A stretch of DNA of 64,000 bases. It comes from Enterobacteria phage Aplg8. Location of the stretch: the sequence record NC_054902.1; one strand, 5' to 3'. The stretch's first letter is position 1. The number at the start of each line of letters is the position of its first letter. This document shows positions 51,013 to 56,803 of the stretch, one piece after another. The translations under genes were made by a program, and so were the position numbers. The notes beneath the pieces are model-generated. The model saw only the letters and a list, made by a program, of their open reading frames with translations, had not been told where the DNA came from and ran no database searches.

Positions 51013-51042
51013 ATTATACCACATCCTTGTGGTAAAGTAAAC
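51013..51042 (-). promoter_or_regulatory. Early promoter for the rIIA operon (GTTTAC-N18-TATAAT)
   Basis: Consensus elements; the -35 overlaps the gene 39 stop codon. Confidence 0.5.
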
Positions 51043-52862
51043 TACTGGCTCATCCATTCTTTGCGAAGGTCAGCATTATCTCCCATGAGCATTTCAAAAA
51101 GCTCTTTCCAGTTCTCAGGAAGTTTAACAACATCATATACTGGATTTTGAATCATCTCACGATATTCAGATTTTTCCAAAGAGCCAAGTCCTTTAATATA
51201 ACGGATGCTATGTTTAGGTAGAGCATCTTTGGCACTCTCATATTCAGCGACTGTATAAAACCATTCTTGTTTTTTACCGACCTGAGCGATGATTACAGGA
51301 GTTTTGACAAAGCGAATTCGTCCTTGCTCAAACAATTCTGGCCAATTACTAAAAAACCCGAGCAGAGAAGGATAAATGCTTCCTAGACCATCATGGTCAG
51401 CATCAGTCATAATAGCAATATTGCGATAATTCAAGTTTTCAGCTTTTTCACCAAGAACTAGACCAGTGATTGCGCAAATATCAAATAGTTCTTTGTTTTT
51501 AAGCATATCGGCATATGACATACCCCAGCTATTAAGAACTTTACCGCGCAATGGATAACCACCATGAAGTTCTTTATCGCGAACATCAATAAGATATCCG
51601 ATAGCTGAATCACCCTCAGTCAAGAACAATGTAGTGTCAGCATCTTTACCGCAAAGATTCGCTTTGATATGTTTGTGAACCTTAGCTTTAGAAGCCTTTT
51701 TAGCTGCTTTAGTTTCTGCTGCTTTTTCTGCCGCCAATTTACGAGCCAAAGCAGCTTCAATAATCGGCATTAAAATTGCTTCATTATTTAGAATAGCGCG
51801 TGAAATCTTTTTAGCATCAAGTTGAATATGACTACGGATTTCACCAAATGGAGAAGTCAAACGCTCTTTAGTTTGAGAATCAAATCGCATGTTTTTCATA
51901 TCACGAACAAACATAACGATAGTCAAACATTCTTTGACACGCGCTTTGGTTACATCAATTTTGAACTTACGTTTGATTTGTGGAATAAGGTCTTCACAAA
52001 TATCATCCATAACACAGTCAATGTGATGGCCACCATTCTTAGTATGAATGTTATTGACGTATGTTAATTGACGAAAACCATCCGGTGAACGACCAACCGC
52101 AATAGAACAATTTTCTTGTTCTTGAACGATAGCATGTTCATCATATTGGCGTGCGTATTTCTTAAAATTACCCTGAACCTTTTTACCATTAAAGGTAAAT
52201 TGAATATCAGGATAAACAACAGCAAGTGTTTGGAGACGATCTAGTGTAATGTCAAGATAAACTTGGGACAGCTCATTAGTTTCAAATGACATAAAATCAG
52301 GAATGAAAGTAACACGAGTTCCTTTCCATTTTCCAGGAATATCTTCCCATGATTTATTTTCCATGCCATTTGAGCAACGAACTACAATATTATTTTGACC
52401 ATCGCCAGTTTCACCGACAAACATCACAGAAAAAATGTTTGTCAAACTAGAACCAACACCGTTCATACCGCCAGTGACGCGTTCTTTATCATCACCGAAG
52501 TTACCACCTGCTTTTGGAATAGTCCATGCGGCAACAGGACCAGGAATTTCTTCACCGGTAGGTGTTTTAACCATCGCTTGTGGAATACCGCGACCGTTAT
52601 CTTCAACTGTTACTTGATTGTTTTTAATAGTAACATTAATTTTATTTGCGAATTTAAACTTAGTACGAATACCTTCATCTACTGAGTTATCGATAATTTC
52701 ATCAATAAGCTTAACAAGACCAGGTACATACTGAACACTTTCCCATTTACCAAACAGAAAGCGCTCATGCATTTCATTAGCAGAAGAGCCAATGTACATG
52801 CCACTACGCTTTTTGATATGTTCAATATCGCTCAGAATTTTAATTTCATTCTTAATCATCAC
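51042..52862 (-). CDS. 39: DNA topoisomerase II large subunit, fused 39+60 form
   Basis: 606-aa continuous ORF carrying the GHKL ATPase region and Toprim motifs TEGDSA and IMTDADHDG; no separate gene 60. Confidence 0.9.
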   Translation of the reverse strand: MMIKNEIKILSDIEHIKKRSGMYIGSSANEMHERFLFGKWESVQYVPGLVKLIDEIIDNSVDEGIRTKFKFANKINVTIKNNQVTVEDNGRGIPQAMVKTPTGEEIPGPVAAWTIPKAGGNFGDDKERVTGGMNGVGSSLTNIFSVMFVGETGDGQNNIVVRCSNGMENKSWEDIPGKWKGTRVTFIPDFMSFETNELSQVYLDITLDRLQTLAVVYPDIQFTFNGKKVQGNFKKYARQYDEHAIVQEQENCSIAVGRSPDGFRQLTYVNNIHTKNGGHHIDCVMDDICEDLIPQIKRKFKIDVTKARVKECLTIVMFVRDMKNMRFDSQTKERLTSPFGEIRSHIQLDAKKISRAILNNEAILMPIIEAALARKLAAEKAAETKAAKKASKAKVHKHIKANLCGKDADTTLFLTEGDSAIGYLIDVRDKELHGGYPLRGKVLNSWGMSYADMLKNKELFDICAITGLVLGEKAENLNYRNIAIMTDADHDGLGSIYPSLLGFFSNWPELFEQGRIRFVKTPVIIAQVGKKQEWFYTVAEYESAKDALPKHSIRYIKGLGSLEKSEYREMIQNPVYDVVKLPENWKELFEMLMGDNADLRKEWMSQ

Positions 52863-52928: not shown

Positions 52929-53198
52929 TTATTTAAAACGAATAGTTGAATCCTTAAAGAACAGCCCAGAACATACTGTTCCTTCTACTTTCTGCCCAGT
53001 AGGTCCAATAGCACGAAATCCAGTATGTTGGAAATCATTTTCAGAACAACCAAACCAATTATATCCAGTGATTTCAATATTAGTAAAACCACTTGAAGAT
53101 AAAACTTTGGTTGCATTATCAGCATCAGTACATCCTGCTAAAGACACTGCTAATACTAATGCCGCGATAGAACGATTAATATATTTCATAATTTTCAC
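52929..53198 (-). CDS. Predicted lipoprotein, 89 aa
   Basis: Signal peptide with lipobox SLAGC (MKIMKYINRSIAALVLAVSLAGCTD). Confidence 0.5.
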   Translation of the reverse strand: MKIMKYINRSIAALVLAVSLAGCTDADNATKVLSSSGFTNIEITGYNWFGCSENDFQHTGFRAIGPTGQKVEGTVCSGLFFKDSTIRFK

Positions 53199-53566
53199 TC
53201 AAATTTAATGGCTTGAAGAAGACTAATAATTCTCAAGCGACTTCTTTCATCTTTAACTGTAAAAGAAAGAGGGTCACCAGATTTCATAGTAATAGTACAT
53301 TCAAAATCAAAATCTTCTGTGACTTCTTCGAAGAAGTCAAATTCTTCATCATAAATTAGAACATTACTCTGACAACTATGAAGAATTTTTCCATCATTTC
53401 CAGATGCTGTACTAATCATTGTAACATTATGACCTTTCATATCTTCAACGATAAATTCACTAGTCAATATTACGGCATTAATAGAACTATTCCTATTACT
53501 AGCAGAAAGTAGATATTTCTGTTCTTCACCTTCACGAATACGATATTTCTTACCGATTTTAAACAT
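53195..53566 (-). CDS. Hypothetical protein, 123 aa
   Basis: ORF between goF region and gene 39. Confidence 0.45.
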   Translation of the reverse strand: MFKIGKKYRIREGEEQKYLLSASNRNSSINAVILTSEFIVEDMKGHNVTMISTASGNDGKILHSCQSNVLIYDEEFDFFEEVTEDFDFECTITMKSGDPLSFTVKDERSRLRIISLLQAIKFE

Positions 53567-54173: not shown

Positions 54174-54421
54174 TAATAAATTTCCTTCCAGTAAGTTGTA
54201 CCGTCTTCAGTGATTTCACGGAATACACCATAAATCGGTTGTTTATCACCAACCTTTTCATACACATAAACCGAAGTCAAGTGAGTAAACTTGATGGTGT
54301 GTTCCTTTTGAACTACTACCAAATCTGGATCGAATAATACATCTTCAAATTCGTCATTAGTGCAATTCTGAACAATTTTACGTTTCATTACAATTTCCTC
54401 ATTAATTGAACAGTGGAGCAA
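54173..54421 (-). CDS. Hypothetical protein, 71-82 aa (possible Cef)
   Basis: From the internal Met the product is 71 aa, the length of T4 Cef; position only. Confidence 0.3.
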
Positions 54422-54683
54422 TGCGTTTCAGAAGAGTAGCAGCACCTTTGGCGAATTTTACATCATGAAAAACAGTTTCTTCTTCCGTTACAACACGAGC
54501 TTTAATGTTTTCACAATCCCAATTTTTGCGAACAATCTTCAAAAGCTGCAGTAAATCTTTACATTCAGCAATATCGATAACACATCCACGAGAATCTTCC
54601 ATTATCGCACGATAACCGTAAGCCATACCATAATTGTTGAAAGATTGCTCGATGATAATTAAGTTTTCCATTTTATTCTCCAA
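54402..54683 (-). CDS. Hypothetical protein, 93 aa
   Basis: ORF with GGAGAA Shine-Dalgarno downstream of a palindromic promoter-like element. Confidence 0.45.
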   Translation of the reverse strand: MENKMENLIIIEQSFNNYGMAYGYRAIMEDSRGCVIDIAECKDLLQLLKIVRKNWDCENIKARVVTEEETVFHDVKFAKGAATLLKRIAPLFN

Positions 54684-54695
54684 GTTGTTTTCTGT

Positions 54696-54738
54696 ATCAG
54701 TAGTTGATATTGATATAGTACCATAATCAACTACTGAT
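54696..54738 (-). promoter_or_regulatory. Promoter-like element with 13-bp perfect inverted repeat around the -10
   Basis: ATCAGTAGTTGAT (54696-54708) and ATCAACTACTGAT (54726-54738) flank TACTAT; -35 is non-consensus. Confidence 0.4.
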
Positions 54739-54778
54739 GTATATAGTTTTATGAAAAAATTTTAAACTTTATGCAAAT

Positions 54779-55198
54779 TTATGCTAAAGCTGCTTCGCAC
54801 CATTTTTTAATTTGGAATTCAGGAACTACCATGAACTGGCCTGCAAAAACAATATTGTAGAGCTTGACACCATCTTCTACCCAACGGTCCGAAATAAAAC
54901 CAGCGACTTGATTCGTTGTCCATGGAGTTCCATCTGTTGCCGCCGCAATTGTGAATTTATGGTCTTTTACAACTAAAACTGAAGAACAAAGTTTCCATTT
55001 AAATGCGCTTTCTTCTGGCTCAATGAACTGACTTGAGACATAACCAATGTTACCATCAGCGTCACGAACTTTAACCTCGTTACGACCAAAAACTGGATCA
55101 CTTACAGAAAGAACTTCAACCAGCTTTCCTGCAACTTTAGAACGAGAAGCAACGGATACATATACGTAATCACCAGTAGAGAGATTTACAATATTCAT
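54779..55198 (-). CDS. Tandem paralog 1 (139 aa) of a three-gene family
   Basis: N-terminal SVASRSKVAGKLVEV and C-terminal GFISDRWVEDGVKLYNIVFAGQFMVV shared with the next ORF. Confidence 0.5.
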   Translation of the reverse strand: MNIVNLSTGDYVYVSVASRSKVAGKLVEVLSVSDPVFGRNEVKVRDADGNIGYVSSQFIEPEESAFKWKLCSSVLVVKDHKFTIAAATDGTPWTTNQVAGFISDRWVEDGVKLYNIVFAGQFMVVPEFQIKKWCEAALA

Positions 55199-55207
55199 AA
55201 TAATTCC

Positions 55208-55681
55208 TTAAGCTTTACGAGGAGAAGCATAACGAGTGATTTCAGATTCTTCAACAACCCGGAAGTCACCTAAAAATACAATATTGTATAGCTTTTTACC
55301 GTCTTCAATCCATTGGTCTGTGATGAAGCCACACATCCTATCAGTTTTACTTGGACCAGCGAAATCATCAATATAATCGAATTCTTCATCAGTTACAAAT
55401 TCAACGCCTTTACACAACGCCCATTTAAATTGTGCATTAGACTCAGTGGATTCAACTTCTTCAACAGAAGCAAAATGAGAGCTAACACGAGTTTCCAGAA
55501 ATTTAGGACTTACGTAAGCGTACTGAGTTTCAGTTTTTCCAGAACTAGGAATGATTCGAACTTTAACTTCTATAACACGACCAGTACCATTAGTACGAAG
55601 TCCTACCACTTCAACTAGACGACCTGCAGCTTTAGAACGAGATGCAGACGATACACGCTTAATTTCACCGATAGTAATCAT
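55208..55681 (-). CDS. Tandem paralog 2 (157 aa) of a three-gene family
   Basis: N-terminal SSASRSKAAGRLVEV and C-terminal GFITDQWIEDGKKLYNIVFLGDFRVV. Confidence 0.5.
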   Translation of the reverse strand: MITIGEIKRVSSASRSKAAGRLVEVVGLRTNGTGRVIEVKVRIIPSSGKTETQYAYVSPKFLETRVSSHFASVEEVESTESNAQFKWALCKGVEFVTDEEFDYIDDFAGPSKTDRMCGFITDQWIEDGKKLYNIVFLGDFRVVEESEITRYASPRKA

Positions 55682-55725
55682 AATTTTTCTCTCTTTGCTG
55701 TTAAGATTTATTCTCCATGAGAGCC

Positions 55726-55753
55726 ATTATAACAGGCTCTCTATAAAGTAAAC
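55726..55753 (-). promoter_or_regulatory. Early promoter (GTTTAC-N16-TATAAT)
   Basis: Consensus hexamers with a 16-nt spacer on the minus strand. Confidence 0.4.
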
Positions 55754-56248
55754 TTAATTAAGGATATTAATTACTGCACTACGTGGAACTACACTAAAAT
55801 CACCTGCATGAACAACGTTCAGAAGTTCAACACCGTCTTCAATCCACTGATCAGTTACCCATCCACTCACTGGACCTGCGAACGGACGTCGAATTGAAAC
55901 AGCTTTACACAACAAATCAGTAGGCTCAATAGGCTTAACCAGAGTACCGTACATACAAGCGATATCCATATCAATACAGATGTCTTTAACGGGTTCTACT
56001 TCTTCAATCAACAGTTCAAAGTCGGTGCTTGGAAGGGCGGTAGTAGAAATTGTACCGTATGAATTTTTAATTTCTAAGAATAACCAAGGGCCTTCAGCTT
56101 GTTTGATGAAGTTAACAATAGTGAAACTATTACCTTGAGTGGCGCCTAAAATTTCACAAAACTTTTCATAAGCTCGCACTGAAGCACCATACCAGTTGAT
56201 TTGCTTTTCGTCTTTCAGGATGTAAGTAGCTGTAGTACTGATATTCAT
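55754..56248 (-). CDS. Tandem paralog 3 (164 aa); possibly MotB-like by position
   Basis: C-terminal GWVTDQWIEDGVELLNVVHAGDFSVV shared with paralogs 1 and 2; lacks their N-terminal motif. Confidence 0.45.
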   Translation of the reverse strand: MNISTTATYILKDEKQINWYGASVRAYEKFCEILGATQGNSFTIVNFIKQAEGPWLFLEIKNSYGTISTTALPSTDFELLIEEVEPVKDICIDMDIACMYGTLVKPIEPTDLLCKAVSIRRPFAGPVSGWVTDQWIEDGVELLNVVHAGDFSVVPRSAVINILN

Positions 56249-56260
56249 GATGTTTTCCCC

Positions 56261-56803
56261 TTAATCTAAGGTAATAAAGCCTTTTAATTCGGCATGTGAC
56301 TTGCGGAACATTACTTGATGACCGCCAATGATAACTTGGTCATCAGGTACTTCGTATACAGCGAGATAAAATCCTTTAGAAGCTAATTCTTCACGCTCTT
56401 CTCGTGTGAACCATCTCATCATATCATATTCGCTAGCGAAAGCAAAATGATAAAGAGCTATAAACCATCCTGGAATATAGTGATCTACGCCTACATATTC
56501 TTCTTTCTCAAAATTAGTATTAATTGCTATATTAGCATTTTTAACTAATAATTTGTCTTCATGCGGCACAGGAATTCTTTTATTATCATTACTATGATGC
56601 ATAAAATTAGGTCTGTCATAACCTACGTGTAATAACCACTCTTCACTCCATGAATCTATTATACTCCTGTACGGAGTTATTTGAACACAAAGATCTCGAC
56701 GTATTGTTATAGCATCTTCATAATTAAGAATACTAAATGATGATTCAACACGATAAATTTTCATTTTATTATCCTCAGTAGCTATGGTGTTATAATACCA
56801 CAA
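56261..56803 (-). CDS. Hypothetical protein; probable start at MKIYRV (about 56764), 167 aa
   Basis: Internal Met has a GAGGATAA Shine-Dalgarno; the track start lies inside the upstream promoter. Confidence 0.45.
   Translation of the reverse strand: MWYYNTIATEDNKMKIYRVESSFSILNYEDAITIRRDLCVQITPYRSIIDSWSEEWLLHVGYDRPNFMHHSNDNKRIPVPHEDKLLVKNANIAINTNFEKEEYVGVDHYIPGWFIALYHFAFASEYDMMRWFTREEREELASKGFYLAVYEVPDDQVIIGGHQVMFRKSHAELKGFITLD

Follow-up and report, generated by a model that had tools for sequence, protein, structure and literature searches.

A motB.1-motB-motB Cassette of T-Even Phages in Enterobacteria Phage Aplg8, Probably Encoding Two-Barrel Early Proteins

In Enterobacteria phage Aplg8 (NC_054902.1), three consecutive genes on the minus strand encode proteins of 164, 157, and 139 amino acids (aa) which, judged by their sequences, are members of a family of small early proteins found in T-even phages, MotB (Pfam PF17613). 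The analysis covered a 64-kb stretch of the genome, hereafter the window. The trio is interpreted here as the motB.1, motB, and second motB genes of a Tequatrovirus, likely encoding two-barrel early proteins and passed between phage genera as one cassette under purifying selection; the probability of this interpretation is estimated at about 80%. Each protein would consist of two small beta-barrels joined by a flexible linker, with a variable N-terminal head that is probably KOW-like in both MotB copies and GoF/LSm-like in MotB.1. As a family these genes are already known; they are annotated in GenBank and were analyzed in PMC7827196 and PMC12152347.

Identification of Three MotB-Family Genes

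Gene names were assigned by synteny with the annotated genomes of T4, RB51, and Sf23 and by profile matches. On this basis, the 164-aa open reading frame (ORF; 55754-56248, minus strand) is motB.1, as indicated by synteny with motB.1 of T4 and RB51 and by its match to phrog_2333. The 157-aa ORF (55208-55681, minus strand) is motB, as indicated by synteny and a full-length PF17613 match. The 139-aa ORF (54779-55198, minus strand) is an extra motB copy, the orthologue of Sf23 gp130 and of RB51ncORF010c, which is annotated as "similar to motB"; T4 has no counterpart. RefSeq labels the 139- and 157-aa genes as "MotB-like transcriptional regulator", and some submitters call all three proteins regulators.

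On the minus strand, the gene order is dda, small ORFs, dexA, motB.2, the 164-, 157-, and 139-aa genes, a 93-aa ORF (54402-54683), cef, goF, 39.2, a 123-aa ORF, 39.1, and gene 39. MotB proper is characterized by this location, flanked by dexA/motB.1 and cef in a genome of the Tevenvirinae. The 2.6-kb stretch around the trio is 99.6% identical to Shigella phage Sf23 and matches 692 phage records, and on sequence grounds the window is assigned to Tequatrovirus.

All three proteins score above the gathering cut-off (25 bits) of PF17613, "motB, modifier of transcription": 139.6 bits for the 157-aa protein (E-value 1 × 10−40), 72.1 bits for the 139-aa protein (6.4 × 10−20), and 35.0 bits for the 164-aa protein (1.6 × 10−8). 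The 157-aa protein spans the profile from end to end (residues 1-153 against positions 2-158 of 162), and the match of the 164-aa protein is confined to its C-terminal half (residues 84-159). In PHROGs, the 139- and 157-aa proteins match phrog_1671, the MotB-like regulator (E-values 9.8 × 10−51 and 3.4 × 10−67), and the 164-aa protein matches phrog_2333 (1.1 × 10−82) with phrog_1671 as a secondary match. A first-pass annotation had described three tandem ORFs with related peptide blocks in this region and had placed them where T4 carries motB; the ORFs and the blocks are present as described, and the genes proved to be motB.1, motB, and an extra motB copy themselves.

Conservation of the C-Terminal Domain

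The paralogy of the three genes, which the same annotation had proposed from a common C-terminal domain, is borne out by sequence comparison. With BLASTP, the 139- and 157-aa proteins are 39% identical over their whole length (E-value 6 × 10−29), the 157- and 164-aa proteins 52% identical over 42 residues (7 × 10−12), and the 139- and 164-aa proteins 59% identical over 29 residues (6 × 10−11). The comparison with hhalign of a MotB profile (34 sequences) and a MotB.1 profile (27 sequences) gave a probability of 98.2% (E-value 4.7 × 10−14), and its convincing part pairs approximately residues 89-150 of the 157-aa protein with residues 112-161 of the 164-aa protein. In the C-terminal block, positions occupied by D, W, E, G, L, N, V, and G are invariant across all 34 MotB-type and 27 MotB.1-type sequences. 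The core G-[FWY]-[IV]-[ST]-D-x-W-[IV]-E-x-G-x-x-L-x-N-[IV]-V is found in all three proteins, and its positions are invariant or nearly so in both family alignments. The block is not of low complexity and the similarity is far beyond chance, which removes the concern that it is coincidental; the homology search places it in a known family, PF17613.

The core block extends from G100 to V125 in the 139-aa protein (GFISDRWVEDGVKLYNIVFAGQFMVV; 54824-54901), from G118 to V143 in the 157-aa protein (GFITDQWIEDGKKLYNIVFLGDFRVV; 55253-55330), and from G129 to V154 in the 164-aa protein (GWVTDQWIEDGVELLNVVHAGDFSVV; 55787-55864), all on the minus strand and all delimited by the alignments. It coincides with strands 109-126, 129-136, and 139-144 in the model of the 157-aa protein and with strands 127-137, 140-147, and 150-155 in that of the 164-aa protein. 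In the 139-aa protein, the corresponding strands are assigned by homology with these two models. The block, with its WIEDG...LYNIVF sequence, would represent the central strands of the conserved C-terminal barrel.

A six-frame hidden Markov model search of the window returned no copy of the domain beyond these three. As candidate members of the family, motB.2 (56261-56764), goF, and the 93-aa ORF were rejected, with hhalign probabilities of about 0.1% each.

N-Terminal Heads and Linkers

The 157-aa protein comprises a KOW-like N-terminal domain (residues 1-62), a disordered acidic linker (approximately 63-88), and a C-terminal beta-barrel domain (89-157). In the 139-aa protein, the KOW-like domain (approximately residues 1-62; 55013-55198) is followed directly by the C-terminal domain (63-139; 54779-55012), with no acidic linker between them. 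In the 164-aa protein, the N-terminal domain is of another kind, a beta domain with a single helix (residues 1-85); after it come a linker (approximately 86-108) containing the motif DMDIACMYGTLVKP and a MotB-type C-terminal domain (109-164). This C-terminal domain is of the MotB.1 type (PTDLLCKAV...GWVTDQWIEDGVELLNVVH), positioned after a non-KOW N-terminus.

An N-terminal motif SxASRSKxAGxLVEV had been noticed in the 139- and 157-aa proteins, together with a differing N-terminus in the third. In the form S-x-x-S-R-S-K-x-A-G-x-x-V-E-V and in combination with the MotB C-terminal domain, it is indeed restricted to these two proteins, and the KOW motif residues S, S, S, A, G, and VKV are invariant across the 34 MotB-type sequences. 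By this measure the 164-aa protein, whose head is not KOW-like, is not MotB proper (Category 1).

The common C-terminal domain and the different N-terminal domains of MotB and MotB.1 were recognized by Patterson-West et al. in 2021, who sorted 102 homologues into categories by N-terminal type (PMC7827196). Clustering of the N-terminal parts of 223 homologues revealed three head types on one C-terminal module. The first, KOW-like type is the MotB head, to which the 139- and 157-aa proteins belong; the second is the MotB.1 head, found in proteins of 143-169 aa including the 164-aa protein; and the third is found in proteins of approximately 180 or 248 aa. There are also hybrids (P0162 and P0202), in which a KOW-like head precedes a C-terminal domain of the MotB.1 type.

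The sequence D[MI]D[IV]A[CS]MYGTL[VI]KP, seen in the 164-aa protein (55925-55993) and in P0107-P0109, P0132, P0138, and others, is located in the linker of the 164-169-aa forms of MotB.1 and at the N-terminus of MotB.1-type proteins of about 180 aa, and is lacking in the 143-145-aa forms. It appears to behave as a movable peptide module and is possibly a short interaction motif.

The N-terminal domain of MotB.1 is an LSm-like five-stranded barrel, as in GoF and Frd.2, according to Kim et al. 2025 (PMC12152347). The 164-aa protein and GoF of the window showed no direct sequence or profile similarity. The 123-aa ORF (53195-53566, minus strand) between 39.1 and 39.2 is a GoF-like paralogue that T4 lacks, and its best match, phrog_622 (E-value 3.6 × 10−30), is also the top family of goF. 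Its N-terminal half is weakly similar to the MotB.1 head (phrog_2333, E-value 1.3 × 10−3; hhalign, 63.7%; hmmsearch, E-value 2.4 × 10−4), and it gives independent support, at the sequence level, for the published link between the N-terminal domains of GoF and MotB.1.

Predicted Structures, Charge, and Expected Functions

The AlphaFold2 model of the 157-aa protein has a mean predicted local distance difference test score (pLDDT) of 80.9, with residues 66-82 below 50, and that of the 164-aa protein has a mean pLDDT of 80.0. The N-terminal domain of the latter contains strands 8-11, 42-49, 55-62, 67-73, and 80-83 and a helix at 26-37. In the models, the C-terminal domain looks like an SH3/Tudor-like barrel. 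A profile search of the sequences of solved structures in PDB returned nothing better than an E-value of 0.68, and Foldseek against BFVD gave no new functional lead; the matches with E-values below about 1 × 10−6 were either named MotB or transcriptional regulator or at least 33% identical to the query, and the named ones were all from T4-like phages. Two Pfam matches in the 139-aa protein, SH3_3 and YqiJ_OB, were below the threshold (E-values about 0.08) and were not used.

The isoelectric point (pI) of T4 MotB is 9.23, and its basic nature is also stated in the 2018 paper; the pI values are 5.6, 5.4, and 4.5 for the 157-, 139-, and 164-aa proteins. A clearly basic N-terminal domain is present only in the 157-aa protein (pI 9.6); its counterpart in the 139-aa protein is acidic, and the net charge is negative in the C-terminal domains of the 157- and 164-aa proteins. 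This charge pattern suggests that the KOW head, rather than the shared C-terminal domain, is the part that binds nucleic acid.

The published model assigns that role to the C-terminal domain, as a cold-shock-type OB-fold, and would make all three proteins DNA-binding proteins of the nucleoid-associated type through this domain. It is based on an HHpred prediction (PMC7827196), and it agrees with the C-terminal domain being the most conserved part of the family and with the slightly basic C-terminal domains of T4 MotB and the 139-aa protein (pI about 8). When the 2021 prediction was tested here, the C-terminal domain did not come out as an OB-fold, and its SH3/Tudor-like appearance and acidic character cast doubt on the proposal of an OB-fold DNA binder, which is regarded as unlikely.

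The same features can be read in another way: the shared module may be an acidic SH3/Tudor-like domain for docking or oligomerization that does not bind DNA, with the MotB copies and MotB.1 binding one common partner or each other, and the cassette would be a co-adapted three-part set. The KOW heads would then be directed to DNA and the LSm-like head of MotB.1 possibly to RNA. One candidate for the partner is H-NS/StpA filaments, and another is RNA polymerase, since MotB was once co-isolated with it. This arrangement is only tentatively put forward, with a rather low probability.

Functional expectations are derived from T4 MotB, which Son et al. (NAR, 2021) reportedly describe as a nucleoid-associated protein of phage origin with the ability to compact DNA. 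T4 MotB is abundant early in infection and binds and coats modified and unmodified DNA tightly and non-specifically (PMC6070864, PMC7827196). It copurifies with H-NS and StpA only if DNA is present, alters the H-NS footprint, and up-regulates 75 host genes, about one third of which are in the H-NS regulon; it is toxic in Escherichia coli and doubles the burst size (PMC6070864, PMC7827196). The suggestion of the first-pass annotation that these genes encode host-interaction proteins agrees with these properties of T4 MotB. For MotB.1, deletion of the T4 gene causes no laboratory phenotype (PMC12152347). For T7 gp5.5 and T4 Arn, as for T4 MotB, the outcome is proposed to be that H-NS silencing is relieved or remodeled (PMC7827196), but these two proteins are not homologous to MotB and bind H-NS directly, whereas MotB associates with it through DNA only.

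In the interpretation of the trio as motB.1, motB, and a second motB, the 157-aa orthologue would do the job of T4 MotB via its basic KOW head, the 139-aa copy would be a compact functional second version, and MotB.1 may join this C-terminal module to another type of head, possibly one directed at RNA. T4 MotB (NP_049626, 162 aa, PF17613, Category 1) and the 157-aa protein have the same KOW-like motif, linker, and C-terminal domain, their genes are both located downstream of motB.1 behind a conserved TATAAT, and the 139-aa protein has the same two domains. Two points weigh against this interpretation. The function is transferred from T4 MotB, which is just 46% identical to the 157-aa protein and 37% identical to the 139-aa protein, and the proteins of the window are acidic overall whereas T4 MotB is basic, so that tight charge-driven DNA binding may not hold for them. 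For these alleles, the charge difference makes it less safe simply to assume tight, non-specific binding of DNA.

Exchange of the Trio as a Mosaic Cassette

Comparison with blastn and the contrast in synonymous divergence (dS) with the flanks delimit a three-gene mosaic cassette at 54774-56262 on the minus strand; the blastn boundaries, 54774 and about 56260, are just outside the three genes. The flanks share 89-96% identity with T4, and the cassette is 69-80% identical or unalignable. At the protein level the identity to T4 is 100% for dexA, 97% for cef, 46% for motB, and 38-46% for motB.1. Four loci from Mosigvirus and Carettavirus show the reverse: the cassette is 83-88% identical and the adjoining dexA 69%, and the protein identity is 73-96% for the trio, 67-68% for dexA, and 65% for cef. 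In the comparison with these Mosigvirus-type loci, dS is 0.12-0.28 for motB.1, 0.38-0.91 for motB, and 0.47-0.66 for the 139-aa gene, against 2.0-2.3 for dexA and cef. Because the patterns of identity and dS reverse relative to the flanks and the boundaries flank the three genes, the trio is best described, from these sequence comparisons, as a mosaic cassette exchanged between phage genera (Tequatrovirus and Mosigvirus).

The locus of RB69 and Mosigvirus has the same three genes in the same order as the window; their products are 84-96% identical in amino acids to those of the window, and the flanking genes are only 65-68% identical. RB69 is one of several phages with more than one motB or motB.1, carrying two motB genes and one motB.1 (PMC7827196). 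A motB.2-like gene is located upstream of the trio beside dexA in the window (56261-56803) and downstream of it beside cef in the Mosigvirus-type loci (L004-L007, 3480-4004). This difference in placement indicates that the cassette and motB.2 changed their relative order between genera.

Metagenomic contigs (L009-L012; P0028, P0029, and P0031) carry single chimeric genes in which a MotB head, of the T4 or window type, is joined to a C-terminal domain of the 139-aa type. The chimeric genes sit between a motB.1-type gene and an 89-aa ORF or cef, in place of the two genes of the window. Their structure is consistent with deletion through recombination between tandem copies, and it is concluded from these sequences that the tandem copies recombine with each other. 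As read from the alignments, the variety at the locus is due to swapping of N-terminal modules, replacement of alleles and cassettes, and fusion of tandem copies.

Purifying Selection on the Three Genes

The ratio of nonsynonymous to synonymous divergence (dN/dS) was estimated by the Nei-Gojobori method with orthologues from six phages: RB51, T4, and four with a Mosigvirus-type locus, of which one is a Carettavirus and the other three are Mosigvirus or unclassified records. The values are 0.08-0.20 for the 139-aa gene, 0.17-0.42 for motB, and 0.08-0.29 for motB.1, and 0.11-0.27 for goF, 0-0.13 for cef, and 0-0.13 for dexA. By domain, the median omega is 0.08-0.16 in the shared C-terminal domain, which is the most constrained, 0.12-0.21 in the heads, and about 0.3 in the linkers, which are the most relaxed. 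By these estimates the trio is kept by purifying selection in every domain, although pairwise comparison by this method could overlook a few positively selected sites.

The first-pass annotation had associated tandem diversification of such a family with diversifying selection; in this model, the tandem duplicates would diversify where they stand, under positive selection in an arms race with the host. The locus is in the early, dispensable region devoted to host takeover (PMC6070864), and it is hypervariable among otherwise near-identical phages, with dexA identical to that of T4 and motB and motB.1 far below. However, dN/dS does not exceed 0.42 in any of the three genes or a median of 0.33 in any domain, which is comparable to goF; dS is raised along with dN, which points to old alleles exchanged by recombination; and the boundaries of the cassette coincide with the three-gene block. 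Diversifying selection is not supported at this resolution, diversity is attributed instead to the head swapping, cassette exchange, and fusion of tandem copies described above, and an arms race in place is considered improbable.

Distribution of the Family and the Second MotB Copy

With tblastn, MotB-family matches were found in approximately 750-770 phage records, which by their leading organism names are from T-even-type phages of enterobacteria. Related phages carry one to three copies per genome, which answers the question of copy number raised with the first description of the genes. An orthologue of the 139-aa protein with at least 80% identity is present in 206 of 772 MotB-carrying records; the other 566 match it only below 60%, through motB.

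Two pieces of T4 MotB are missing from the 139-aa copy, namely the linker of about 25 residues and, within the N-terminal domain, a 6-residue insert. That it is a redundant, decaying duplicate of motB without a function of its own is very improbable: its absence from T4 and about 73% of MotB-carrying phage records, the loss of the MotB linker and hairpin insert, and the collapse of motB and this copy to one chimeric gene in some genomes would fit such a decay, but its frame is intact, its low dN/dS holds across dS up to 0.68, its length is 139 aa throughout 24 clusters, its identity across two genera is 84-91%, and it has its own ribosome-binding site. On the evidence of sequence conservation all three genes appear to be functional, since dN/dS is low, the same trio is found in Mosigvirus genomes, and the 139-aa orthologues recur in the 206 records.

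Expression Signals and Neighboring Features

T4 MotB and MotB.1 are early proteins (PMC6070864, PMC12152347, PMC7827196). Each of the three genes is preceded by a purine-rich ribosome-binding sequence, which is a Shine-Dalgarno-like AAGGA for the 139-aa gene; this gene starts 9 nucleotides (nt) past the motB stop.

The spacer between motB.1 and motB contains an element (55712-55752, minus strand) with TGn-TATAAT (TATAAT at 55726-55731), TTTACT 15 nt upstream, and a 13-bp hairpin. T4, RB51, and the Mosigvirus-type loci all retain the TATAAT; the arrangement is TTTACT-15-TGnTATAAT (extended −10) in the window and TTTACA-17-TATAAT in T4. The element is a probable early promoter for motB. A scan for promoter and terminator consensus sequences stayed at background (22 sites against 19.7 expected), and it missed this likely promoter because of the 15-nt spacer. 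The hairpin holds the TATAAT in its loop (−16.8 kcal/mol, z-score −4.35, by RNA folding), and an equivalent hairpin is present in T4 (L003, 3668-3708; −19.4 kcal/mol, z-score −4.84). The stem sequences of the two hairpins differ (GGGACC/GGTCCC against GAGAGCC/GGCTCTC), and spacers from Mosigvirus look different again.

The stretch that separates the 139-aa gene from the 93-aa ORF contains a perfect inverted repeat (ATCAGTAGTTGAT ... ATCAACTACTGAT; 54696-54738, minus strand), whose 13-bp stem encloses a 17-nt loop. A partial fold of this region has −12.4 kcal/mol and a z-score of −3.5; no U-tract follows the repeat, which makes it unlike a classical terminator. Further downstream, the topoisomerase II large subunit is encoded by one 606-aa ORF (51042-52862, minus strand), whereas in T4 it is divided between genes 39 and 60, which are separated by mobA. 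In the Mizar record, the single topoisomerase ORF is annotated as similar to both gp39 and gp60.

The T4 Reference Sequence of motB.1 and Implications

T4 MotB.1 (Category 2; LSm-like-fold family) and the 164-aa protein belong to the same PHROG, are encoded at the same place between motB.2 and motB, and have the same head type and C-terminal domain. The 164-aa protein differs in an extra linker segment of about 20 residues, which contains DMDIACMYGTLVKP and is N-terminal in other family members. In the T4 reference motB.1 (L003, 3792-4151, minus strand; compare 55754-55868 of the window), an extra G is present inside the WIEDG codons, ATTGGAAG versus ATTGAAG. The extra G is found only in AF158101.6 and NC_000866.4 and leads to the annotated 119-aa "13.8 kDa" protein. 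In 13 other T4 records and in RB55 and RB59, the extra G is absent, and the gene encodes a 143-aa MotB.1 with a full C-terminal domain. The reference motB.1 is, by this comparison, very probably mis-sequenced or a strain-specific frameshift.

Kim et al. cloned T4 sequences from NC_000866.4 and reported a MotB.1 of 13.8 kDa (PMC12152347), which indicates that their MotB.1 was probably the truncated form. Tests of MotB.1 constructed from NC_000866.4 would use a protein without most of the conserved domain. For work on the early genes of T4, the exchange of the cassette, the revised fold assignment of the C-terminal domain, and the frameshift in the reference sequence may all be of use.

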